Of a stretch of DNA of 64,000 bases, positions 2,869 to 14,240 are shown piece after piece (position 1 is the first letter of the stretch; every line of letters begins with the position of its first letter). The stretch comes from Corallococcus coralloides DSM 2259 (GTDB lineage: Bacteria; Myxococcota; Myxococcia; Myxococcales; Myxococcaceae). Below the pieces are notes generated by a model. It saw only the letters and a program-made list of their open reading frames with translations. It did not search any database and had not been told where the DNA came from. The position numbers and the translations under genes were made by a program. Location of the stretch: contig NC_017030.1 of NCBI RefSeq assembly GCF_000255295.1, forward strand, positions 6,294,328-6,358,327, written 5' to 3'.

Positions 2869-3023
2869 GTCCCCACCTCCCAGGTCCGCGACCCGCGCAT
2901 AGTGTACCCAGGACACCATCCTTGTAAAGGCTGACGGCTCGCGCGGTGTCCACGGTTCATGCCAAGCTTTCGCGCCCTTCCCGTCTTGAACGGAAAGCCC
3001 CATCCTCACGAGGCGCGCTCCGA

Positions 3024-6000
3024 ATGCGTCGACGCCCCCTGCTGCTTGCCCTTGGTCTGTCTGTCCTGGCCGCCTGTTCCCCGGTGGAGCCGGAGGCGCC
3101 GGCTTCGCCCGAGACGTTTGGCGAAGCCTCGCGGGCGCAATCCGTGCCGGTGGAAAAGGCTTACGACATCCAGTTGACCTGGGACGGCGCGACGAAGTGC
3201 CCCACCTGCATGTACCCGTCCTATGCCTGCTCGGACAACACCGGAAACTGGAACGGTGGGGCCCGGAGCTTCAGGGATCCCGTCACGCCCGGTTGGGTGG
3301 TGATGTTCTTCTCGGCGGAAGTCTTCGGCCGTGGCTACGACGGCGGGTTCACGACCGTCCTGCTGAACGGCCACGAACTGGGGACCCGCAACATGACCCC
3401 GGATCTCGCCCGGCTGTGCCGTGGCTGCGAGTCGCCGGAGGTCTCGGCCAAGGCGAATGACGCCATGGGGGTGCCCGGCTATCGATACGGCGACACCAAT
3501 ACCCTCACGCTGCGGACGGAACGGACCAACTGCTTCGCCGCCGTCAAGATTCACATGAAGACGGGGCGGCCCCTGCTCAAGGTCAATCCAGAGCGCCTGT
3601 CCTTCGGATCGATCGCCGTGGGCTCATCCGCCTCCCAGAAGGTGAAGCTGACCAACGAGGGCGTCGTCCCGCTCCTCATCGACTCCCTGTCGGTTCCCCT
3701 CCCCTTCAAGCTGACGCCGGTGTCACTGCCCTTCACCCTCATGGATGGCGCGAGCCTGGACGTGACCGTGACGTACGCGCCCACGGCCGACCGCGTGGAC
3801 TCCGGGATCCTGAACGTGCTGAGCCGCGACCCCGACAGGGGCTCCCTGCCGATTCAGCTCGAGGGTTCGGGCGGAGCCCCGAAGCTCCAGCTCACGCCGA
3901 GCGCGCTCGACTTCGGCCCCGTACGTGTGGGCACGAGCGGCAGCCTGCTCCTCCAGGTGAAGAACGTGGGGAGCCTGCCGCTCACGATCCCCGCCGTGCT
4001 GACACAAGCCCCCTTCTCCGTGAGCGGCCTGCCTCCGGGGGGCAGCGTGGTGCAGCCACAGGCGGTCCTCCCGCTGACGGTGACCTTCACGGCGACGGCG
4101 GGTGTGTCGTCCCTTCCGCTGTACATCCAGGCCGAGGGCTCCGCCACGCCGCTCGCGGAGGTCGCGCTGCATGGCGTTGGCATCGAACCCGCCATCGCCG
4201 TGGGGGCGACCTCGCTGGACTTCGGTGTGCACACCGCGGGCGTCGACCCTGTTCGCAAGACGCTGGCGGTCAGCAACACGGGCCTGGACGACCTCATCCT
4301 CACCGCCTTCGACGTCGAGGCGCCCTTCACGGTGGAGTCCGGCCTTCCGCTGACCCTCAAGGCCCGGGACCAGGCGAACCTGACGGTGGCCTACGCCCCA
4401 GGGGCAGGCCGCGCCGCGAAGGACCTCACCCTGCGAAGCAATGATCCGCGCACCCCGGCCGTGAAGGTGGCGCTCACCGGCACGGGCGTGGAGATCCCCG
4501 CGCTCAAGGTCACCACGCCCGATGGCGGCACGACGCTGGAGTTCGGCTCGCGCGAGGTCAACTCCGTGAGCGCGCCCCAGGCATTGACGCTCAAGAACGA
4601 GGGGGCCGGAACGCTGGTGGTGGAGCCCATCCAGGCGCCCACGGGCTTCGCCGTGACGCCCGCGGGACGGTTCAGCCTGGCTCCCGGTGCCACGACCCAG
4701 GTCCAGGTCACCTTCGAGCCTCCGCATATCGCCCAGTTCGCGCAGGAGCTGGTGCTGAGCGCGGACGGCCCGGGTGGCTCCATCCGGACCGTGCCGCTCA
4801 GCGGACAAGGCGTCGAGGGAAAGCTGACCGCCACCCCCTCGGCCCTGTCCTTCGCGCGGACGGAGGCGGGGAAGAGCAGCAAGGCGGTGCAGGTGACGAT
4901 CGTCAATTCGGGGACGGACAAGCTCACCCTCAGCACCATCGCGGTGGCGGGGCCGTTCTCGGTGGTGCTTCCGAAGCTTCCGCTGGAGCTCCCGCCGCGC
5001 GACGCCTTCACGATGGACGTCACCTTCAGCCCGCTCGAGGACGGCGCCGCGACCGGAGTGCTCCGCGTGTTCTCGAACGCGCCGTCGTCTCCCACGGTGG
5101 TGAAGCTGGACGGTGAGGGGCTCCAGGCTGTCGCCCGGATGGCGAACGACGTGATGGAGTTCGGCGGTCAGCGGTTGGGGGGCCTGAGCCCGCCCCGGGA
5201 GCTCACGCTGTTCAACATGGGGAGCGAGTCGCTGAACGTGACGGCGGTGAACGTGAGCGGCCCGTTCCAGGTCTCGGGGCTCAACGTGGGCACCAGCGTG
5301 CCGCCGCTCGCGAACCGCACGTTCCAGGTCAGCTACAAGCCGACCGAGGCCACCTCGGAGCAAGGCGTGCTGGAGGTCCAGAGCAACGCGCCGCGCGCTG
5401 CCCAGGTGACGCTGCGGGGCACGGGGACCACGGCCTCGATGGAAACCTCCGTGACGGCGCTGACCTTCGGCGCCCAGTTCCTCGGGGAGGCCTCGCAGCG
5501 CGTCGTGGAGCTGCGCAACACCGGCACGAGCCCCGTCACCCTCACGGGACTGGATCCGGTGGACGGGTTCTCCGTGTCGGGGCTGCCGCTGCCCCATGTC
5601 GTGGCGCCCGGCACCAGCTACCCCTTCTACGTCGTTTTCGAGCCAGCGCGGCCGGGCGATTACGCAGGGTCGCTCGCGGTGCGGCACGATGCGTCCTCCA
5701 CGCCGCTGATGATCGCGGTGCAGGGAGCCGGCGCGCAGCAGACGCTGACGGTGACGCCCGGAGCCATCGTCTTCGGCAACCAGCGGGTGGACGCCACCAG
5801 CCAGCCCCTGTCGTTGGAGCTCGTCAACACGGGCAACGTGCCCGTCACCGTGGAGGTGAAGTCCTCCGATGCCGCGTTCCGCGTGGACACGAGCGCGGTG
5901 AGCGGTGCCATCGCGGCCAGTAGCCGCGCCTCCATCCCGGTGACGTTCCATCCGACGCGCACGGGCACGGTGCGCGGAGAGGTCCGCGTGGTGCCGAGCG

Positions 6001-6161
6001 GTGGCGGACTGGGACCCACGGTCGTTCCCGTGGAGGGGATTGGCGAGGCCGTCACCGTGGAGGGCAGCGGCTGCTCCGTGGGTGGGGCCGGCGGGGCCTG
6101 GGTGCTGGCGGCATGGTTGTTGGCGAGGCGAAGGGCCCGTCGCGGTCAGCAGGCCCGCTAG
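3024..6161 (+). CDS. secreted lipoprotein with at least 8 tandem ~95-aa Ig-like/ASH (choice-of-anchor-D-like) beta-sandwich repeats and a C-terminal MYXO-CTERM sorting signal
   Basis: Lipoprotein signal MRRRPLLLALGLSVLAAC. Repeated units of the form L.FG.V.VG.S....V.N.G...L.I. The C-terminus GSGCSVGGAGGAWVLAAWLLARRRARRG has the Cys / Gly-rich / TM / Arg-rich pattern of MYXO-CTERM. The distinct ~160-aa N-terminal Cys-containing domain has unknown function. Confidence 0.8.
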   Translation: MRRRPLLLALGLSVLAACSPVEPEAPASPETFGEASRAQSVPVEKAYDIQLTWDGATKCPTCMYPSYACSDNTGNWNGGARSFRDPVTPGWVVMFFSAEVFGRGYDGGFTTVLLNGHELGTRNMTPDLARLCRGCESPEVSAKANDAMGVPGYRYGDTNTLTLRTERTNCFAAVKIHMKTGRPLLKVNPERLSFGSIAVGSSASQKVKLTNEGVVPLLIDSLSVPLPFKLTPVSLPFTLMDGASLDVTVTYAPTADRVDSGILNVLSRDPDRGSLPIQLEGSGGAPKLQLTPSALDFGPVRVGTSGSLLLQVKNVGSLPLTIPAVLTQAPFSVSGLPPGGSVVQPQAVLPLTVTFTATAGVSSLPLYIQAEGSATPLAEVALHGVGIEPAIAVGATSLDFGVHTAGVDPVRKTLAVSNTGLDDLILTAFDVEAPFTVESGLPLTLKARDQANLTVAYAPGAGRAAKDLTLRSNDPRTPAVKVALTGTGVEIPALKVTTPDGGTTLEFGSREVNSVSAPQALTLKNEGAGTLVVEPIQAPTGFAVTPAGRFSLAPGATTQVQVTFEPPHIAQFAQELVLSADGPGGSIRTVPLSGQGVEGKLTATPSALSFARTEAGKSSKAVQVTIVNSGTDKLTLSTIAVAGPFSVVLPKLPLELPPRDAFTMDVTFSPLEDGAATGVLRVFSNAPSSPTVVKLDGEGLQAVARMANDVMEFGGQRLGGLSPPRELTLFNMGSESLNVTAVNVSGPFQVSGLNVGTSVPPLANRTFQVSYKPTEATSEQGVLEVQSNAPRAAQVTLRGTGTTASMETSVTALTFGAQFLGEASQRVVELRNTGTSPVTLTGLDPVDGFSVSGLPLPHVVAPGTSYPFYVVFEPARPGDYAGSLAVRHDASSTPLMIAVQGAGAQQTLTVTPGAIVFGNQRVDATSQPLSLELVNTGNVPVTVEVKSSDAAFRVDTSAVSGAIAASSRASIPVTFHPTRTGTVRGEVRVVPSGGGLGPTVVPVEGIGEAVTVEGSGCSVGGAGGAWVLAAWLLARRRARRGQQAR

Positions 6162-6282: not shown

Positions 6283-7833
6283 TCAGGGGGGAGGAGGCGC
6301 GGGGACGGTGCGGGCCGAAGTGGGCTCGCCCAGGATCAACAGAAGCTCCGCGCGGCGGTTCTCGCCCCGGCCCGCTGGCGTTCCGTTGGAACCCGCGGGC
6401 CGGCGTGCACCGAGGCCCCGGGCTTCCAACCGGTGGGCCGGGACGCCCTTTCGCACCAGGTAGTCGCGCACTGCTTCCGCGCGAGCGAGGGACAGGCGCT
6501 GGTTGGAGGCGGAGGAGCCTTCCGCGTCCGTGTGGCCTTCGATGACGACGCGCTCCACTTCCGGATGCTCCAGCAGCACCCGCGCCACCTGATCCAGGAC
6601 GCGTGAGCGGCCCGGCAGCGTCGTCGCGCCGACCTCGAAGAAGACCTGGCCATGGAGGACGAGGCGCTCGCGGGTCAGGGTGACAAGCGGGTCTCCGGTC
6701 TCCGGGCAGCCACCGTGTTCGCGGGTCCCCTGTTCGTGGATGCAGGCGTCCAGCACGTCCACGACACCGTCGCCGTCCGTGTCGGTCTCGGAGAGCGACA
6801 CATCCTTGGAGGGCTCGGGAGGTGGAGGTTCGGAAGGCGTGGGTTCAGGTTCAAGCTGCGGCTCGGCGGGAGCACGCGGCAGGCTCTGGACGAGCTCGTA
6901 GACGATGTCCTCCGGAGGCGGAGGTGGCGGCTTGTCGAAGAGAAGCGCGAAGCCCGCGAGCACCCGGTAACGGGGCGCGCCCGGCTCCGCGCCCAGGCCC
7001 GCCCCCCCCAGCGCGAAGAACTCCCAGGGCCGGGCCGGTGCGTAGCGCAGGCCGCCCAGCAGCTCGCCGCTGGTGCGCTGCTGCCGCCACGAGTACGCGC
7101 CGAGCGCCGACACCTCCGCGCGCAGGGCGTACCCCACCGTCAGCCCCACTCCGGCGCGCAGCTCATTGCCCACGCCGTTGAGGCTGTCCACTCCGGAGTC
7201 CGTCGAGACCGCGCGACGCAGGAGCACGCCCACTTCCAGCGCCGGAGCCACGGGCCCCCAGCGCTTGCCCATCATGATCCGTCCCTGACCACGGACCCCC
7301 TGATCACGAGCAAGCGCCCCCGAGCCACCCACGGGCAACCGCACGTCCAGGTCGAGCGCCAGGTGGAAGGCCTCGGGAGCGGAGGTCCCCAGCAATCCCA
7401 ACCGGGCCGCGAGCCTCGGCGCCCCCAGCCCGCTGCGTGACGGCGGGGAAATGGACAGCACGGTGCTCACATCCGCACCGCTCTGGTGGATGACGCCAGG
7501 AAGCTGGGCCTGAAGCTCCAGCCAGGGCAGTACGCCCACAGCCAGCGACACCAGACCCGTGGTTCGGGACAGGACGAGCGGGTATTCGTCCGGCCCGTTC
7601 CGGACCGTCAGCGATCTCCGCTGGTAGTGCGCCATCAACGAGATGCGCAGCGCGCCGGGCGCCAGCAGCTCCCCGCTCCCCATTGTCAGGAGCCCCAGCC
7701 CCGGGTTCGGGTCCAGGCGCTCCAGGGAGAACATGGGCAGGGGCGTGGCGTCCTGGGCGCGCGCGGGGGCTGCGAGCAGCAGCAGTCCCAGCACGGCTCC
7801 GCCACGCGCACATCGGTGCAAGACCGGACCCAT
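6283..7833 (-). CDS. OmpA-family outer-membrane protein with thrombospondin type-3-like Asp-rich repeats
   Basis: C-terminal OmpA domain (FEVGATTL..GHTDAEGSSASNQRLSLARAEAV..NRRAELLI). Calcium-binding-like DTDGDGVVDVLD repeats. Signal peptide MGPVLHRCARGGAVLGLLLLAAPARA. The start at 7833 has GGAAGA 9 nt upstream. An alternative start is at 7851. Confidence 0.85.
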   Translation of the reverse strand: MGPVLHRCARGGAVLGLLLLAAPARAQDATPLPMFSLERLDPNPGLGLLTMGSGELLAPGALRISLMAHYQRRSLTVRNGPDEYPLVLSRTTGLVSLAVGVLPWLELQAQLPGVIHQSGADVSTVLSISPPSRSGLGAPRLAARLGLLGTSAPEAFHLALDLDVRLPVGGSGALARDQGVRGQGRIMMGKRWGPVAPALEVGVLLRRAVSTDSGVDSLNGVGNELRAGVGLTVGYALRAEVSALGAYSWRQQRTSGELLGGLRYAPARPWEFFALGGAGLGAEPGAPRYRVLAGFALLFDKPPPPPPEDIVYELVQSLPRAPAEPQLEPEPTPSEPPPPEPSKDVSLSETDTDGDGVVDVLDACIHEQGTREHGGCPETGDPLVTLTRERLVLHGQVFFEVGATTLPGRSRVLDQVARVLLEHPEVERVVIEGHTDAEGSSASNQRLSLARAEAVRDYLVRKGVPAHRLEARGLGARRPAGSNGTPAGRGENRRAELLLILGEPTSARTVPAPPPP

Positions 7834-8071
7834 GCGCGCATCTTCCGTCATGTCCCGCCCGGGACGAAGGGGAATGGCGGTTGGACTCGCACCTGCTGCG
7901 CACCTCCCCCTCACGGAAACATGCGCATGCAAAGGCAGTCATTCATGGGCGAGCATTCTCATGCGCTCGAAAACCTTCACGCCTGCGCTTCTTGATGCGG
8001 CCGGGTGCCCCCAAGACGCCGAGCCCGATATCCTATCAATGCAAGCGCGGACCCAGGACCCAGGAGGACAC

Positions 8072-8506
8072 ATGCGAGTCGCGATCATCGCCGGGCTGAT
8101 GGCTGTCGGGGTGTTGGCGGGATGTGGAAGAGAGGACTTGAACCAAGACGCGCAAGACATTCCGGCGACGCATGAGGCTGCCCTGCCATCCACATCGGAA
8201 TGCGAAGACACGTGCGATCAGCTGCGTGTCGCATGCCTCGACACCGCGGAGAACAGCGCACAGCGCATGGTGTGTCAGCGCGACTGGCTGGCATGCAACG
8301 AGGGCTGTGCTTCTTCCAATGCCGCGATGGCTCCGCCCGACAGCTGTGATCCGTTTGAGGACGACGGTTGGTGTCCCGTGTCCAGCAACAAGATCACCTG
8401 CTTCAACGGCGTCCAGATGGATGCGCACTGGACTCCGGACGGCTGGTGCATCAACGCGGACGTCTGCAAGAACTACGGCGGCCCCTGGGGCTGCCCGGAA
8501 TGGTGA
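8072..8506 (+). CDS. Cys-rich small lipoprotein, paralog 1 (about 14 Cys)
   Basis: RBS CAGGAGGA lies 4 nt before the ATG. Lipobox LAGC. C-terminal module APPDSCDP..DGWC...C.NG....TPDGWCI...CKN.GGP.GC. Codon usage is A/T-enriched and atypical for this genome. Confidence 0.65.
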   Translation: MRVAIIAGLMAVGVLAGCGREDLNQDAQDIPATHEAALPSTSECEDTCDQLRVACLDTAENSAQRMVCQRDWLACNEGCASSNAAMAPPDSCDPFEDDGWCPVSSNKITCFNGVQMDAHWTPDGWCINADVCKNYGGPWGCPEW

Positions 8507-8511
8507 GCGCC

Positions 8512-8802
8512 ATGAAGCGACAGACGCTCGCACTGGCCTTCAGCGTGGGGATGATGCTCGCCGGCTGTGGACCGGAAGCGGCCCCCACGCCGGAAACGGA
8601 AACAACCGGGGACCGGGTGCACGCCATGGCACCGCCGGACAGCTGTGATCCGGACATCGATGTCGGCTGGTGCCGGATCACCACGGACCGGGTCCGCTGC
8701 GCGAATGGCTTCTATATGTATGCCTATTCGACGCCAGACGGCTGGTGCATCCGCTACGACGCCTGCAAGAACCAGGGCGGGCCGTACGTATGCGGTCTGT
8801 GA
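8512..8802 (+). CDS. Cys-rich small lipoprotein, paralog 2 (about 8 Cys)
   Basis: It starts 6 nt after the paralog-1 stop. Lipobox LAGC. It shares the APPDSCDP-DxGWC-xC-NG-TPDGWCI-CKN-GGP-C module with the upstream gene. Confidence 0.65.
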   Translation: MKRQTLALAFSVGMMLAGCGPEAAPTPETETTGDRVHAMAPPDSCDPDIDVGWCRITTDRVRCANGFYMYAYSTPDGWCIRYDACKNQGGPYVCGL

Positions 8803-8809
8803 TGAAGTC

Positions 8810-8935
8810 CCCCTCGCGGGCCAGCAGTGCCCCCGTTCCTCTGGGGCCATCGTAGCGTTCTGGGCGCGCGGGGGGTGCGAGCAGCAGCCCCAGCGCGGCC
8901 CCGCCCACTGCGCATCAGGGAGGCCCGGTGCCATT
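8810..8935 (-). pseudogene. degenerate partial duplicate of the 5' end (signal-peptide region) of the OmpA-family gene
   Basis: About 60 nt at 8858-8935 are roughly 85% identical to 7751-7840 (CTGGGCGCGCG.GGGG.TGCGAGCAGCAGC..CCCAGC.CGGC.CCGCC). The - strand translation MGGAALGLLLAPPARPER..GTGALLAREGDF mirrors the OmpA N-terminus ARGGAVLGLLLLAAPARAQD..GSGELLAPGAL, with deletions. Confidence 0.5.
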
Positions 8936-10662
8936 CATCCGCCAGGCACAGCCTGCTCCACGGTCCTCGCGCCACCGGAAAGCCTTTTCTCGCGTAAGCG
9001 GCAGCGCGAGGCAATCTCGCCCGGAGCGCTGGCCGCCGGCAGCAGCCTCGACGCCGCGGACAGGTGAGGCTCAGCACGGTCGCACTGCCTCGCTACGCTC
9101 CAGCGAACCCCCAAGGTCATGCGTGTCGGGTAATCGTCAGCGGCAAACCGGAGTGCCTGCGCTTCGATGGCGTCGAGGTTCGAAGCGGTTCCGGCCGCAT
9201 GGCGGATGACAAGGAGCGCCACCTCACGTGAGGTGCCCAGCACCCCAAACGCGAGCAGGAGCGCCACGCCACACCACCGGACGGCTCCAGAAAGGTGACG
9301 CCCCAGCGCGGGAGGGCACCAGGTATCCCCAGGCCTCCGGGGCAGCAGCGTGCCAAGGAGGACCGCGGTAACGCAGGCTGCCGCAGGGGTGATGAGCACC
9401 GCGTCGATGGCGCCCAGCCACGTCGTGACCATGAGCAGGGCCGCGGCAGCGCCCCCAGCCAGTGCGTCGTCCGCGCGCGGCGCGCGCAAGAGCGTGCGGC
9501 CAGCGCGCACGAACAATCGGAGCGCGACAAGAACAAGCAGCGCGAAGGCGAACAGGCCTCGTTCGGACAGCACCGCGACCCAGTCGCTACTGGGATAGCG
9601 ATTCGTGGGCTCGTAGCTCTTCAGGTGCACGGATGGGTCATTCGCCTCCGCGAAGCGTGGATACTGTACCGGCCAGTTCCCGGGACCGACGCCAAGAGGC
9701 CAGTAGGCCTTTGCCATGAGCAGCGACGTCTCGTACTGGATCAGCCGCCCGCGGCCGCTCCCCGAGTCCGCCTCCACGAGCCCCCAAAGCGTGTCCCGAT
9801 AGGGGTGTGGCGAGTTCCAGCGCAAGCTGTTGGGCAAAATGAGCGCCGCCGTGCCGCCAAGCACCCAAGCAAGCAGGACGGCGGCCCCTCGCCGACGAAT
9901 GCTCCCATTGCCTGTGCGCGGCACGACGTGCAACACCAGTGCGGCGGTGAGGGCGATCACCAATGCGGCCCCCAGCCACGCGCCTCTCGACCTGGCAATC
10001 ACAACCACATAGCCCGAAGTGAGAGCGCTCGCGAGGGCGAGCACCCTCCACCGCCTGGGGTCACCGAGCGCCAGACACGCCGTCGCCGGAAGTCCCAGCA
10101 CCAGCAGGTGCGAAAGGGAGTTTCGATTCCCCAAAGGCCCACCGGGCACCCGGTGAAGGGCGGACAGCCGAGGCGTAAGGCCATTCGCCTCGAGTGCCGC
10201 GATGAGCGCGGCCAGCAGGAGCGTGGAAATGACCGTGGTCAGCAGCACCCGGCGTGTGCCTGAGGGCAGCCCACGCGCGATGACGAAGAAGAGCCCTCCG
10301 CTTGCCGACGTCCCCAGAGACGACCAGGCCAGTGACCGGTTCGTGGCGACCGTCAGTACCGAGGTGCCCCCCAGCACGAGGAAGAGAAGCAGGGCCCCGG
10401 TTTCGGCGTCCAGCCAGCTGTCGCGCTCATGGGCGACGTAAACAGCTGCCGCGACAAAGGACGCGATGATGACCATCGCGGTCTTGGGCTGGAAGAAATC
10501 AAGTGGGTCGGTAGGAGGTAATGGCCAGGCCGACAACACGCTGCCGACCACCCCTGCCGCCAGCAGAACGGTGACAATCCATGCCGCGCCACTCTCCGCG
10601 AACGGCCTGGGAGGGGGCTTCGTCGCCGCAGGCGGCAAGGGGTCGCGGGCCGCACTCGACAT
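8935..10662 (-). CDS. O-antigen ligase (Wzy_C)-family polytopic membrane protein, PglL/WaaL-like, with a ~150-aa C-terminal soluble extension
   Basis: At least 10 TM helices. The SRGAWLGAALVI motif and the downstream loop NDPSVHLKSYEPTNRYPSSDWVAVLSERGLFAF resemble the Wzy_C signature region. It is the last gene of the tight operon with the SdpB-like gene, with a 15-nt gap. Confidence 0.6.
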   Translation of the reverse strand: MSSAARDPLPPAATKPPPRPFAESGAAWIVTVLLAAGVVGSVLSAWPLPPTDPLDFFQPKTAMVIIASFVAAAVYVAHERDSWLDAETGALLLFLVLGGTSVLTVATNRSLAWSSLGTSASGGLFFVIARGLPSGTRRVLLTTVISTLLLAALIAALEANGLTPRLSALHRVPGGPLGNRNSLSHLLVLGLPATACLALGDPRRWRVLALASALTSGYVVVIARSRGAWLGAALVIALTAALVLHVVPRTGNGSIRRRGAAVLLAWVLGGTAALILPNSLRWNSPHPYRDTLWGLVEADSGSGRGRLIQYETSLLMAKAYWPLGVGPGNWPVQYPRFAEANDPSVHLKSYEPTNRYPSSDWVAVLSERGLFAFALLVLVALRLFVRAGRTLLRAPRADDALAGGAAAALLMVTTWLGAIDAVLITPAAACVTAVLLGTLLPRRPGDTWCPPALGRHLSGAVRWCGVALLLAFGVLGTSREVALLVIRHAAGTASNLDAIEAQALRFAADDYPTRMTLGVRWSVARQCDRAEPHLSAASRLLPAASAPGEIASRCRLREKRLSGGARTVEQAVPGG

Positions 10663-10677
10663 TCCAGTCCACTCCCA

Positions 10678-11643
10678 TCATTGCAGGGACGACCTGCGCG
10701 TGAACCCGGGGACGGAGGGCCACTTCAGCGCCAACCGTGGCAGCGCGAACGGCACATCGACGGGACGCAGGAAGAGGATGAGCGCGCCAAACATCACCAG
10801 GGCAAAACCCAGCAGTCCATGAACCAGCGCGATGGCCGCATGAAAGGAGATGCCAAGTACGAGCAGCACCGAACGGGCACGGCGTGTTGCGAGGATACCG
10901 GCGAAGAGCATCATCTCCAGCAACAGCGACCCCCACGTCATGAGGGTGATGACCATGCCGTCGGTCAGCAGGGGCATGACGAGTGTCCGGACAGGCTCAG
11001 CGAAGCCAAACCACGGATCCGTGAACCAGTAATACACGGCCGTCCCGTCGCGCCACTCCGCCACCTTCATCTTCGAGACACCCGCATGGAAATAGATTCC
11101 AGCGACCTGAAGCCGAATGGCCCAGAGGCAGGTGAGTGCGACAAATCGCGCGCTCAGACTTGCGAGCGTCCCACCTGGTGTCGACAGGCCTTGTTCATTC
11201 AGCGGAGGAGGATCCCAGTGCCAGCGCCGGGAATCGGTGAGCGTCACGGGAATGAGCAGGAACGAGAGGACCGTGGCCGCCTGGTCCCCCCCGTCAACCA
11301 CCTTCGACGCCGTGAAGAAGCTCATCGCCACGTACCAGTGCAGCACCCCGGTCACCCGGGGGCGCCAGCCGCTTGCGACAAGCGCGAGTACGATGATGGC
11401 AATCCAGCGAGCCACCTCCAGGTAGGCGACTCCGGCGAAGCAGAAGAGGCCCATGCGCGCAGGGCCTCCACAGTGGGACGCATTGGGCACGTCCGCCGCC
11501 ACCAGGAAGAGGTCGGCGGGAGAGGTGAACAGGAGCGTGCCCAGCATGCCCAGTGCGATACACGAGCGGGCGAGCCCCACGACGTTGGAGTGCAGAGGCT
11601 GCTCAAGCGAGGACCGCACCCAGATGCCGAGCCGGGTCAGCAC
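10678..11643 (-). CDS. SdpB-family / HTTM-domain (vitamin K-dependent gamma-carboxylase-like) integral membrane protein
   Basis: Multi-TM protein with the HTTM-like core LQVAGIYFHAGVSKMKVAEWRDGTAVYYWFTDPWFG. A GTG start at 11643 overlaps the SdpA-like stop (GTGCTGA), which suggests translational coupling. A longer alternative reaches 11808. Confidence 0.6.
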   Translation of the reverse strand: MLTRLGIWVRSSLEQPLHSNVVGLARSCIALGMLGTLLFTSPADLFLVAADVPNASHCGGPARMGLFCFAGVAYLEVARWIAIIVLALVASGWRPRVTGVLHWYVAMSFFTASKVVDGGDQAATVLSFLLIPVTLTDSRRWHWDPPPLNEQGLSTPGGTLASLSARFVALTCLWAIRLQVAGIYFHAGVSKMKVAEWRDGTAVYYWFTDPWFGFAEPVRTLVMPLLTDGMVITLMTWGSLLLEMMLFAGILATRRARSVLLVLGISFHAAIALVHGLLGFALVMFGALILFLRPVDVPFALPRLALKWPSVPGFTRRSSLQ

Positions 11644-12302
11644 GAGACCTCCAAGGGCACGACACGCAAGGGCATCGTCACGGGCGTGGGGGACTGCGCC
11701 CAGGCCCACGGCACGAGCCGTTGCAGGACGATGGCGGTTGGCCCGCACATGGTCGGCTCTGGGAAGGTGTTCTTCACGGCGCGCCCGGGTGGAAGCTTCG
11801 CCAGACATTTCTCGACGGATTCCTCACAGGGCAGCCAGGCGTCCTCGGGAAGGCCGTTCACCAGCCGTCCAATCTCCAGCAGCTGCGCGCGGGACTTGCG
11901 GCGGAGCCCTCCGAGATTGGAGAGGCGGCCATGGGGGGCCAGGAGCACCGACTCCCAGGTGGAACCGCGGAGCACGTATGCGGTTCTCTTCTCCTCTCGC
12001 GGATTGCGCGTGAAGAATGACCACCCCTGCGGTGCCCACAAGAACGTGTGCAACTGCTTCGCGTAGGGCAGGCGCACGGGACTGTAGGGCACCGCAGGGT
12101 AGATCGAGTACCCGATGGCGACAATCCATGCGAGCCCCACCACGACGGCAACCGCCCCCAGTCTTGCGTGACTGACTCCAGGGACAGGTGCTGATTCGCT
12201 GGCAGCGGTGATGCGACTGGAAGAGTCCATGATGACACGTTGGGGCAGGCAGTGGACCGTCGGCGCCAGTGCGCAGGCCTGAGCCGTGCGCACCAGCGCC
12301 AT
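11637..12302 (-). CDS. SdpA-family-like protein with N-terminal membrane helix
   Basis: Single N-terminal TM (LGAVAVVVGLAWIVAIGY) followed by the APQGWSFFTRNPREE motif recalled from SdpA-family proteins. It sits immediately upstream of the HTTM/SdpB-like gene and overlaps it by 7 nt. The start is 8 nt after the stop of the upstream lipoprotein gene. An alternative ATG is at 12230. Confidence 0.45.
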   Translation of the reverse strand: MALVRTAQACALAPTVHCLPQRVIMDSSSRITAASESAPVPGVSHARLGAVAVVVGLAWIVAIGYSIYPAVPYSPVRLPYAKQLHTFLWAPQGWSFFTRNPREEKRTAYVLRGSTWESVLLAPHGRLSNLGGLRRKSRAQLLEIGRLVNGLPEDAWLPCEESVEKCLAKLPPGRAVKNTFPEPTMCGPTAIVLQRLVPWAWAQSPTPVTMPLRVVPLEVSC

Positions 12303-12309
12303 CACATCA

Positions 12310-13071
12310 CTACTGAACCGCGATTCGCGTGGCGATCTTGTTGATCAACTGGTCACGCGCGAGCTGTGCTCCCCGCCACGAGTTCTCGCCACCGGACTCG
12401 GTGTGATCGTAGGTGGTATTGCCCGTGGCGATGTTGTCGGAGTCGATGTTTCCGGAATCGGTATTGGTCAGGTAGGTATTGCCGGAGTCGGTGTTCTCAA
12501 GCTCATTGTTGCCTGAGATGGTGTTCGCCTCCATGGTGTTGCCTGACTCCATGTTGCCGGCGATCGAGTTGCCATAGGCCGTGTTGCCGATCTCGCTATT
12601 GCCGGAGACCGTGTTCTCGTAGACGGTATTATCGGATTCGGTATTGTCGGTGGACCCCATGGCGGTGAGCTGTCGCTTGGGGCTCACCTTCCGGACAAGC
12701 GCCGCGCTTTCGCGCAGGGCCCGCTCGATGCGCAGGTGGTTTCCGCTCTGGACCTCGACACCGAAACGATCGAAGAACGTCGGATCGGCCTGGCGCATGT
12801 TCGCCACCAGCGTTGCCTTGGAGCGCTCCCGTGCGGCCTGATTCTGGGGCGTCAGTCGGGTGGGCTGCTGGCGGACTCCCATCTCGGCGTATAGCTCCGC
12901 GAAGACTCCCTCACGGAACGCAAGGTCACCGAAGAGCTTCTCGCCGCTCTGCGCCTGCCAGCTCCGCGCTTGCGAGCCCCCGCTGCCGCACGCGACCATC
13001 AACGACGCAAGCCCTACAACCGTCACAGCCTCTGCCAACTTCTTCAGAAGTGGAAGCCTATGCCGCTGCAT
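12310..13071 (-). CDS. lipoprotein with 17 tandem non-canonical pentapeptide repeats N-[TS]-x-x-G
   Basis: Signal and lipobox MQRHRLPLLKKLAEAVTVVGLASLMVAC. The C-terminal 85 aa are 17 consecutive 5-residue units (NTVSG NSEIG NTAYG NSIAG NMESG NTMEA NTISG ... NTDSG ...). Codon usage is atypical, for example AAT for Asn. It is the first gene of the four-gene operon. Confidence 0.65.
   Translation of the reverse strand: MQRHRLPLLKKLAEAVTVVGLASLMVACGSGGSQARSWQAQSGEKLFGDLAFREGVFAELYAEMGVRQQPTRLTPQNQAARERSKATLVANMRQADPTFFDRFGVEVQSGNHLRIERALRESAALVRKVSPKRQLTAMGSTDNTESDNTVYENTVSGNSEIGNTAYGNSIAGNMESGNTMEANTISGNNELENTDSGNTYLTNTDSGNIDSDNIATGNTTYDHTESGGENSWRGAQLARDQLINKIATRIAVQ
12390..12650. repeat. 15-bp-period tandem DNA repeat (17 units) that encodes the pentapeptide array
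   Basis: Periodic GGCAAYAC/GTTGCC-type units. The opposite-strand frame gives the periodic Cys/Arg pattern ..CRSRC..CC..CC.., as expected for 15-nt periodicity. Confidence 0.8.
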
Positions 13072-13271
13072 ATGAATGAACCTCATGTCTTGATGATTGG
13101 GGACCGACTGGGCTGAAGGACTGCAAACCTAAAATCGTGCACTCTTGATATCCGCGAAGTCAAGGAGTTTCCAGGGAGCACGGATTTTCTGATTCATGTG
13201 ACCCGCGGAGTCCAGGGCCCAATGGACGGCGATCCTCGTCCTGCTACATTGCAATGGAAGAGCTCTTGAAA

Positions 13272-14240
13272 ATGCGCAAGCGGCCAGTCATTGCCATGCT
13301 GTTGCTTCTCTTCTTCCTTCTGCCCACCCTGGGCATGTCGGGCTTGTGGCTGGCAACCCCCGATGCATCCGCACTGCTGCGGAATCACCCTCAACACACC
13401 CAATACATGCTTCTGCGGGCGCGGGAGCAGGGACTGCCCGACCACGCATTCTCCTTGCAGTGGATTGCACTCGGTGATGTTTCACCCCTGTTGATCTGCT
13501 CGGTTGTCAAGGCAGAGGACACGGGCTTCTTCCGGCATCAGGGAGTCGAGTGGGGCGAAACGCGCCGCATTGCCTGGAAATGGCTCACGGGGAACGCCAC
13601 ACATGGCGGCAGCACCATCAGCCAGCAACTCGCCCGGAACCTCTATTTTTCTCCAGACCGCAACGCGGTTCGAAAACTGCGCGAGCTGTTTGCCGCCAAT
13701 GAACTCGAGAGGACATTGGACAAGCGCCGGATCCTGGAGCTCTATCTCAATACTGTCGAATGGGCAGATGGGGTCTGGGGCATACGAAACGCCAGCTTGC
13801 ACTTCTTCAGCAAGGAGCCCGGTGCGCTGGATGCCTTTGAGGCCGCGTTTCTCGTGAGCCTGCTGCCGGCACCGCGTCAGCCATTGCTCGGCCCGAACGG
13901 CTATCGAGCTTACGTCGTCCAGTCGCGCGTACTGAGCCAGCTTCGGGCCTCGGGCCTGCTGGACACGGACGCGTACCAGCGTGGGCAGACACAGGTGAGG
14001 ACGCTCTACAGACAGCTTCTCCGAGGACAGAGGGTGGAAGAGGTTCTCGCTGGAGAACGCTCCACAGGTCCTGAGGTGCGTGGAACAGTCCCTCACCCCG
14101 AGGAAGTGGATGAAGTACTCCGTCAGGAATGTGGGCTCGAGCAGGAACGTGCCGCGGCGAAGAACGCTGTGGCTCCGCCGAACTCCGGGACGAAGTCCCC
14201 CTCCCTGCCCCAGCATGGGCAGGGAGGTCCAGTCGACTGA
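13272..14240 (+). CDS. mtgA: monofunctional biosynthetic peptidoglycan glycosyltransferase (GT51 transglycosylase)
   Basis: N-terminal TM anchor and GT51 motifs EDTGFFRHQGVEW and GGSTISQQLARNLY. GGAAGAG lies 9 nt before the ATG at 13272. An alternative start is at 13254. Confidence 0.8.
   Translation: MRKRPVIAMLLLLFFLLPTLGMSGLWLATPDASALLRNHPQHTQYMLLRAREQGLPDHAFSLQWIALGDVSPLLICSVVKAEDTGFFRHQGVEWGETRRIAWKWLTGNATHGGSTISQQLARNLYFSPDRNAVRKLRELFAANELERTLDKRRILELYLNTVEWADGVWGIRNASLHFFSKEPGALDAFEAAFLVSLLPAPRQPLLGPNGYRAYVVQSRVLSQLRASGLLDTDAYQRGQTQVRTLYRQLLRGQRVEEVLAGERSTGPEVRGTVPHPEEVDEVLRQECGLEQERAAAKNAVAPPNSGTKSPSLPQHGQGGPVD

Follow-up and report, generated by a model that had tools for sequence, protein, structure and literature searches.

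The type example of the SdpC/SdpA/SdpB family, which NCBIfam names an 'antimicrobial peptide system', is the SDP cannibalism toxin of Bacillus subtilis. SDP corresponds to residues C141-S182 of the precursor SdpC and its production requires SdpAB, and the core of the precursor differs between the SdpC homologues and paralogues of Bacillus (PMC6818787). Relatives of SdpC have also been noted previously in Myxococcus xanthus (PMC3924187). Herein we analyze a locus of four genes in a 64,000-nucleotide stretch of the genome of Corallococcus coralloides DSM 2259 (NC_017030.1, positions 6,294,328 to 6,358,327), referred to below as the window and in whose coordinates all positions are given. The four open reading frames (ORFs), all on the minus strand, are 12310-13071 (or 13086), 11637-12302, 10678-11643, and 8935-10662, and they are termed here gene 1, sdpA, sdpB, and gene 4. 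We propose, with a probability of about 0.8, that this locus represents the SdpC/SdpA/SdpB secreted-peptide maturation family, in a form in which the precursor has a non-hydrophobic core and the operon includes a co-inherited gene for a WaaL-fold membrane protein.

The key to this proposal is the identity of gene 1 (12310-13071, 253 residues, with ATG 13086 as an alternative start), whose assignment is based on NCBIfam, on precomputed Pfam tags, and on a profile of our own. The NCBIfam model TIGR04032 (toxin_SdpC) matches residues 44-151 with an E value of 1.7e-17 (63.8 bits, profile positions 5-103 of 172). PF26137 (Toxin_SdpC) is assigned to the three database homologues of the protein, one of which is named 'SdpC family antimicrobial peptide'; a Pfam scan of gene 1 itself matched nothing, PF26137 apparently being missing from the scanned set or not triggered. 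Our profile, built from 39 SdpC ORFs that lie outside the clade of the window, gives 97 bits to residues 9-155 and its match spans the motifs GExLF, DPTFFDRF, and QSGxHLRI. Synteny points the same way, as blastp clustering places an ORF like gene 1 directly upstream of the SdpA-SdpB pair in 56 of 68 loci from the Myxococcota, Acidobacteriota, Gemmatimonadota, Chloroflexota, Bacteroidota, and Actinomycetota. The locus set consists of 65 loci fetched by way of an SdpA alignment plus others obtained by exact-protein look-up, genomes were scanned with a single SdpA peptide pattern, and the tie to the characterized SdpC of B. subtilis runs through the TIGR models only. The homology to SdpC precursors identifies gene 1 as a predicted SdpC-family precursor. 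An earlier note on this DNA, made from the sequence alone, had stated that no SdpC-like precursor is present, and this must be withdrawn, since the lipoprotein at the head of the operon is itself the precursor by profile match, by the Pfam tags of its orthologues, by synteny, and by its motifs. Because gene 1 is assigned to the SdpC family, the locus is placed in the sdpCAB family and is not an undescribed system that has borrowed SdpA and SdpB.

Gene 1 has the architecture common to the family, in which a signal peptide, often with a lipobox, leads into a helical N-terminal domain, which is followed by a variable core and closed off by the conserved tail L-x-RDQ-x-x-x-x-IA-x-RL. The signal peptide (12988-13071) can be read directly from the sequence and ends in the lipobox L-M-V-A-C28, with A27-C28-G29 invariant across the alignment of the clade, which bears out the previous description of gene 1 as a lipoprotein. 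It is followed by the predicted helical pro-domain, residues ~40-131 (12679-12954), which was delimited by alignments and by AlphaFold2 and carries the motifs SGExLF, DPTFFDRFG, and QSGNHLRI; its helices are modeled with predicted local distance difference test (pLDDT) values of 70-86. The protein closes with the tail GENSW-x-G-x-QLARDQLINKIATRIAVQ and the stop codon (12310-12393), as seen in the alignment and in the AlphaFold2 model, where the tail helix 232-250 has a pLDDT of ~77. A tail of the type L-x-RDQ-x-V/I-x-x-IA-x-RL closes the SdpC homologues of many phyla, gene 1 included.

The two genes that follow can likewise be assigned. The product of sdpA (11637-12302), predicted to be anchored in the membrane by its N-terminus and to include a domain that contains Cys, matches PF17418 (E 3.3e-63, 212 bits, cut-off 25) and TIGR04034 (113.6 bits, cut-off 53.1), and Cys and Trp columns are conserved in the SdpA alignment. 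The product of sdpB (10678-11643), predicted to be a polytopic protein of the membrane and to carry an HTTM domain, matches TIGR04033 (296.7 bits, cut-off 178.4) and PF05090 (HTTM; E 2.4e-9, 37.6 bits, cut-off 27.7). By these profile matches, which pass the curated cut-offs, the family membership of SdpA and SdpB is far beyond chance. Together with the PF04932 match of gene 4 described below, which also lies far beyond chance, these searches agree with the SdpA-like, SdpB/HTTM-like, and Wzy_C assignments that the earlier note had made for the second to fourth genes.

We regard the operon-like arrangement of the four genes as established. The four ORFs of 8935-13071 had previously been described as genes of one strand with junctions of 8, -7, and 15 nucleotides (nt), and they are indeed real and read from the same strand, although not all of the junctions stand. 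The start of sdpB is GTG 11643, preceded by a GGAGG Shine-Dalgarno sequence and overlapping the stop of sdpA by 7 nt as described, and the spacing from sdpB to gene 4 is 15 nt. The gap between gene 1 and sdpA, in contrast, is not 8 nt but 7 nt if sdpA starts at ATG 12302, the choice of the gene callers (221 residues), or ~79 nt if it starts at ATG 12230 (197 residues). A clear Shine-Dalgarno sequence was found at neither ATG; in six SdpA homologues the protein begins at a position corresponding to ATG 12230, and the gaps between gene 1 and sdpA in related loci are 47-180 nt. Of the two candidates, ATG 12230 is probably the true start. The intergenic region upstream of gene 1 (13087-13253), where the promoter of the operon presumably lies, is shared with a divergent gene at 13254-14240 that encodes a Transgly-domain (mtgA-like) protein. 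A sigma-70-type site was not found upstream of gene 1, and the promoter and terminator scan was uninformative.

What sets gene 1 apart from most of its family is the core, residues 139-226 (12394-12657), which was delimited by periodicity, hydropathy, and composition and consists of ~17 units of N-[T/S]-x-x-[G/D/E]. In these 88 residues Asn occupies each fifth position, 16 times in succession, and the composition (17 N, 15 T, 11 S, 10 G, and zero K or R) gives a net charge of -15, with Ser, Thr, and Tyr together amounting to 34%. The maximum Kyte-Doolittle average over a 19-residue window past the N-terminal domain is 0.24, the family median being 2.36, and 107 of the 137 family members have, past the N-terminal domain, a hydrophobic segment of transmembrane grade (a value of at least 1.6 on the same scale). 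The DNA of the core has a weak 15-nt periodicity. AlphaFold2 assigns the repeat a pLDDT of ~25 and no beta structure, which fits disorder and neither backs nor excludes a beta-helix. The earlier description of a pentapeptide-repeat protein is correct in the literal sense, the period-five Asn repeat being real, but not in the family sense, as none of the Pfam pentapeptide models matches gene 1 even at E<=1. A phmmer search gave a weak match (E 6.5e-5) of the repeat to a canonical ANLxx protein, and the nearest look-alikes are xNTxx runs in Peptidase_S74 (endosialidase chaperone) proteins and in a GDSL lipase, none of which is in a Pfam repeat family. The xNTxx/SGNTV type of repeat recurs in the large proteins P0151, P0160, P0161, P0166, P0162, and P0277 and no Pfam family covers it; P0161 and P0166 have the Peptidase_S74 chaperone domain and are phage tail fibre-like, and P0162 is the GDSL lipase.

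Cores of this general kind have a restricted distribution. Nearly all of the hydroxyl-rich hydrophilic cores are within the clade whose loci also contain a Wzy_C gene, with Asn/Thr/Ser repeats in the window, P0003, L074, L069, and L076, and with Tyr/Asp/Thr repeats in the Pyxidicoccus trucidator locus L066, where the SdpC homologue (7143-7820) has the repeat core TYAYDLTYAYDFTYDLTYLYDPTYTYDPYTYDP. Low-complexity cores are also found ahead of a hydrophobic stretch in the SdpC homologues of L038 (8967-10019), L047 (8059-9877), and L018 (6911-8020), with Asn-rich N-x-N-x runs in the Arcicella protein of L038 and Gly/Asp/Ser repeats (GGADSGDS) in that of L047. Judged from the sequences compared here, the core of the SdpC family is hypervariable well beyond Bacillus. 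The G+C content over 12001-14000, covering gene 1, the intergenic region, and the mtgA-like gene, is 0.59-0.63, compared to ~0.70 in the flanks, and this stretch could be a small acquired segment or could simply represent Asn/Thr-rich coding.

The fourth gene (8935-10662) encodes a 575-residue membrane protein with a predicted WaaL fold and a C-terminal TPR-like domain, as indicated by PF04932, AlphaFold2, Foldseek, and synteny. It matches PF04932 (Wzy_C) with an E value of 3.3e-14 (53.3 bits, cut-off 31.7), and the domain, residues 212-377 (9532-10029; Pfam boundaries and invariant columns), includes the invariant R224/R226 and R306, a GPGNW motif, and a loop at 277-360. Downstream of it, at 8974-9288, profile matches and AlphaFold2 indicate what may be a 13th transmembrane helix and, after it, a helical domain of TPR-like type in which C527 and C554 are near-invariant. 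The AlphaFold2 model is of high confidence (pLDDT 88, predicted template modelling score 0.90) and contains the helices of 459-563. A Foldseek search of the model against the PDB returned WaaL (7TPG, E 1.6e-6) as the sole match below E 1e-3, and a search of the family profile against PDB sequences returned designed or consensus TPR proteins only (positions 473-529) and not WaaL. From a reading of the sequence and the positive-inside rule we infer ~13 transmembrane helices, with the large loop 277-360 on the periplasmic side, where the TPR-like domain would also reside, as its two near-invariant Cys residues suggest. Mutagenesis of WaaL points to R215, R288, and H337/338 of the E. coli protein as conserved catalytic residues. 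Alignment by MAFFT --add (hhalign gave no usable alignment) tentatively places R215 at R226 and R288 at R306 of gene 4, both of which are invariant, the identity being ~18%.

Wzy_C/TPR proteins with 35-40% identity to gene 4 number in the hundreds, and they share the invariant loop residues and are not sdp-linked. The three contexts that were inspected are unrelated to sdp genes or to genes for lipopolysaccharide (LPS) or exopolysaccharide (EPS) synthesis, and these relatives, orphans in unrelated contexts, were rejected as a guide to the function of gene 4. Two of the orphans, in L070 (5821-8635) and L072 (5616-8569), overlap the gene upstream, which encodes a Peptidase_M48 protease and an unannotated 462-residue protein, respectively, and this hints that this branch of Wzy_C proteins often works with a partner protein.

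The association of gene 4 with the sdp genes is very probably not accidental. A Wzy_C gene follows sdpB on the same strand in all eight loci in which SdpA is at least 55% identical to that of the window, namely the window itself, L001 (a Kofleriaceae metagenome-assembled genome), L066 (P. trucidator), L067, L068, L069, L075, and L076, so that the co-occurrence of the quartet in related genomes, which the earlier note had put forward for testing, is found. The orthologues are 50-91% identical to gene 4 and come from Myxococcaceae, Kofleriaceae, and metagenomes, their flanks differ, and the gaps between sdpB and the Wzy_C gene vary from -4 to ~96 nt. The genes have also diverged in parallel, with identities of 50-74% for gene 4, 57-79% for SdpA, and 61-77% for SdpB. 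The Wzy_C gene is absent from the other 60 of the 68 loci, all with an SdpA no more than 41% identical to that of the window, and the idea that it is a generic feature of sdp operons was rejected. Gene 4 is therefore co-inherited with sdpCAB in a clade-specific manner. In L066 a second Wzy_C paralogue (39% identical) lies two genes downstream on the opposite strand and a PAAR-like/DUF2169 pair lies upstream.

This pattern makes it very improbable that gene 4 is a housekeeping gene, for an O-antigen ligase or polymerase, which just happens to adjoin sdpCAB. The NCBI name of its orthologues, 'O-antigen ligase family protein', and the WaaL fold would suit such an enzyme, but same-strand adjacency is kept in eight loci whose flanks and gaps vary, the protein diverges together with SdpA and SdpB, and it has the extra TPR-like domain, which is not in WaaL. 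Moreover, LPS or EPS genes were not found nearby; the flanks in the window encode the mtgA-like protein, FolD, Smr, adenosine deaminase, an OmpA-family protein, and Cys-rich lipoproteins. This places the Wzy_C protein outside the classical LPS/EPS setting, in line with the earlier note. The earlier note had specified two outcomes that would speak against its view, a classical WaaL/Wzy protein in an LPS or EPS context next to a gene without an SdpA match, and a lack of co-occurrence in related genomes, and neither is what we observe.

Within the sdpCAB framework the following course of events can be envisaged. The precursor would be exported and lipidated at Cys28, as its lipobox predicts. Its helical N-terminal domain and C-terminal helix, conserved across phyla, flank the hypervariable core and may be the elements that SdpA and SdpB recognize. 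The membrane-anchored SdpA and the polytopic HTTM protein SdpB would then convert the precursor to the mature product, as in B. subtilis, and by analogy with SDP the internal core may be released or modified. Gene 4 would act as an accessory in the periplasm. The lipoprotein is the likely substrate of the neighboring membrane proteins, as had been suggested. For gene 4 itself we tentatively favor, at somewhat less than even odds, the view that it encodes a dedicated accessory enzyme of the periplasm by which the SdpC-derived product, or the precursor, is decorated or ligated; self-protection is a possible but less probable function, and other roles, or no role at all, account for the remainder. 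A more specific and speculative version, which we consider rather doubtful, is that SdpAB have been repurposed, away from a hydrophobic membrane toxin, for a long, acidic, hydroxyl- and Asn-rich peptide that is glycosylated or ligated to the envelope by gene 4 as a His-less, O-oligosaccharyltransferase-like WaaL-fold/TPR protein.

Several points weigh against parts of this interpretation. Gene 1 lacks the hydrophobic core that defines the known SDP-type toxins, and its TIGR04032 score is below the NCBIfam cut-off (63.8 versus 99.2 bits), with profile positions 104-172 unmatched. Replacement of the usual hydrophobic core accounts for the low score; the homologue from M. xanthus reaches 136.3 bits and covers the whole profile, and family members with hydrophilic cores score 64-90 bits and cover it only in part. 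This amounts to a blind spot in annotation, since SdpC precursors with hydrophilic cores fall under the cut-off and are labeled "hypothetical." To our knowledge, a product, processing site, or activity has been established for no member of the family outside Bacillus, and we know of no case, even in Bacillus, where the chemistry of SdpA and SdpB has been worked out. With regard to an enzymatic accessory role, the essential His of WaaL and PglL (H337/338) corresponds in gene 4 to a conserved Ser, S358, an assignment that is tentative at ~18% identity. Gene 4 has no Pfam family besides PF04932 at E<=1, PglL_A and Wzy_C_2 being absent. A strict link to Ser/Thr repeats is not seen, as ordinary hydrophobic cores occur beside the Wzy_C gene in three loci, among them L001 and L067 (the latter in both of its SdpC copies), and no conserved glycan-synthesis genes are found near the Wzy_C-linked loci. 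The PglL/PglS class is recognized by Wzy_C together with PglL_A and/or Wzy_C_2 (PMC12645811), and hence by this domain criterion gene 4 falls outside that class.

As the core is acidic and not hydrophobic, the product is unlikely to be an SDP-like, membrane-depolarising toxin. This bears on the reading by which the locus is an ordinary one for an antimicrobial or cannibalism toxin of the SDP type and the Wzy_C-like protein replaces SdpI as the immunity protein. An SdpI (PF13630) or DUF1648 protein is encoded in 22 of the other 60 loci, mostly directly after SdpB (L016, L021-L026, L031, L034, L036, L037, L042-L045, L051-L054, L056, L059, and L061), and in Bacteroidota and Actinomycetota this small gene usually overlaps or succeeds the SdpB stop to give a four-gene C-A-B-I operon. 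Gene 4 sits in precisely this post-SdpB slot, and profiles made from the SdpI and DUF1648 ORFs of other loci detected no such protein when all frames of the 64-kb window were searched at E<=10. Replacement of SdpI would have precedent, as the Bacillus sdpABC paralogues use unrelated membrane antitoxins such as YitQ (PMC6818787), and a non-enzymatic role would agree with the catalytic His apparently being lost. However, an acidic core with no hydrophobic stretch is unlikely to attack membranes, and immunity proteins usually track their toxin, whereas the Wzy_C proteins remain 50-74% identical despite cores as unrelated as Asn repeats, Tyr/Asp repeats, and hydrophobic segments. In addition, the invariant residues of the loop, presumably periplasmic, are common to the hundreds of relatives not linked to sdp, an indication that a catalytic or ligand-binding function has been retained. 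Such a toxin-immunity locus is therefore unlikely.

The view originally put forward, that SdpA-like, SdpB-like, and PglL-like enzymes modify a Ser/Thr-rich lipoprotein in an undescribed post-translational modification or surface-decoration system without SdpC, draws on some of the same observations. A core that is 34% Ser/Thr/Tyr and predicted with a pLDDT of ~25, consistent with disorder, would make a reasonable substrate; hydroxyl-rich hydrophilic cores are almost confined to the Wzy_C-linked clade; the Wzy_C gene is outside an LPS/EPS context; and protein-specific O-oligosaccharyltransferases are often encoded beside their substrates (PMC12645811). Against this, the lipoprotein is in the SdpC family by hidden Markov model, synteny, and flanking motifs, gene 4 is without a PglL_A or Wzy_C_2 domain and apparently has Ser in place of the catalytic His, and the Wzy_C gene also stands beside hydrophobic cores (L001 and L067). 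With gene 1 as an SdpC-family precursor, we consider a separate system of this kind in place of an Sdp locus quite improbable.

Searches of the literature on SdpC in myxobacteria, on SdpC or HTTM proteins with O-antigen ligases, and on HTTM proteins with peptides that are made on ribosomes and modified after translation (RiPPs) did not find this arrangement described. What is new is the non-hydrophobic, repetitive core together with the co-inherited WaaL-fold/TPR gene, and not a categorically new modification system. Everywhere the family carries the annotation "antimicrobial peptide system," and yet here the same frame of pro-domain and tail encloses a core that is unlikely to be that of a membrane toxin, which suggests that SdpAB represent a general maturation system, guided by leader and follower, for peptides with widely variable cargo. 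If the repurposing outlined above were true, a myxobacterial sub-clade would make a ribosomal glycopeptide or surface decoration of an undescribed kind. The co-inherited WaaL-like/TPR gene provides a genetic handle, in the genetically tractable Myxococcota, on a non-LPS role of this branch of the large and uncharacterized "O-antigen ligase family."

Beyond the operon, two small genes of the plus strand at 8072-8506 and 8512-8802 are convergent to gene 4 and encode tandem paralogous Cys-rich lipoproteins, both with an LAGCG lipobox and with C-terminal 57 residues that are 60% identical and contain six conserved Cys. They have no Pfam or NCBIfam match and are not kept beside the other Wzy_C-linked sdp loci. 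The gene at 2946-6161 (plus strand) encodes a 1071-residue protein with about eight 'choice-of-anchor D' / HYDIN-ASH Ig-like domains and a Gly/Cys-rich, hydrophobic-basic C-terminus (GSGCSVGG...ARRRARRG), which we take to resemble a MYXO-CTERM sorting signal. Between this Ig-repeat protein and the Cys-rich lipoproteins, the gene at 6283-7932 (minus strand) encodes an OmpA-family protein whose Pro-rich linker is long and which carries the motif DTDGDGVVD.

Compared with the described systems, the locus is closest to B. subtilis sdpABC and its paralogue yitPOM, with which it shares SdpA (PF17418/TIGR04034), SdpB (HTTM/TIGR04033), and a precursor of the SdpC family, the precursors being alike in having a signal peptide, a conserved N-terminal domain, and a variable C-terminal core. 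It differs from Bacillus in gene order, which is C-A-B, as is usual outside Bacillus, and not A-B-C, in that the precursor is a lipoprotein with a hydrophilic, acidic pentapeptide-repeat core instead of a hydrophobic peptide, and in having no sdpRI immunity/regulator pair and an extra WaaL-like gene. Within the same phylum, the M. xanthus SdpC-family protein Q1CXZ2 (TC 9.B.139.2.1), encoded in the sdpCAB locus L012, has the same C-A-B order and resembles gene 1 in its lipobox-type signal, N-terminal domain, and C-terminal tail. Unlike gene 1, it has kept a hydrophobic core, and with 136 bits it scores above the TIGR04032 cut-off; the SdpA of M. xanthus is 36-41% identical to that of the window and no Wzy_C gene follows its SdpB. 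The core of gene 1 has in common with the pentapeptide-repeat proteins (PF00805, A[D/N]LXX) a period of five and a conserved Asn, but its central position is often acidic and not Leu or Phe, and AlphaFold2 predicts no confident beta-helix. Gene 4 differs from the O-antigen ligase WaaL (PDB 7TPG; E. coli WaaL) in its low identity (~18%), in the apparent change of the catalytic His to Ser358, in its additional transmembrane helix and TPR-like domain, and in having no LPS gene context, whereas the Wzy_C domain, the overall fold, and, tentatively, the invariant Arg equivalents of R215 and R288 are shared. Similarly, PglL/PglS and TfpO/PilO differ from gene 4, which has no PglL_A or Wzy_C_2 and apparently no conserved His and whose candidate substrate is not a pilin, but the Wzy_C core is common to all of them, and gene 4 adjoins a candidate protein substrate just as the genes for TfpO, TfpM, and PglS do (PMC12645811).

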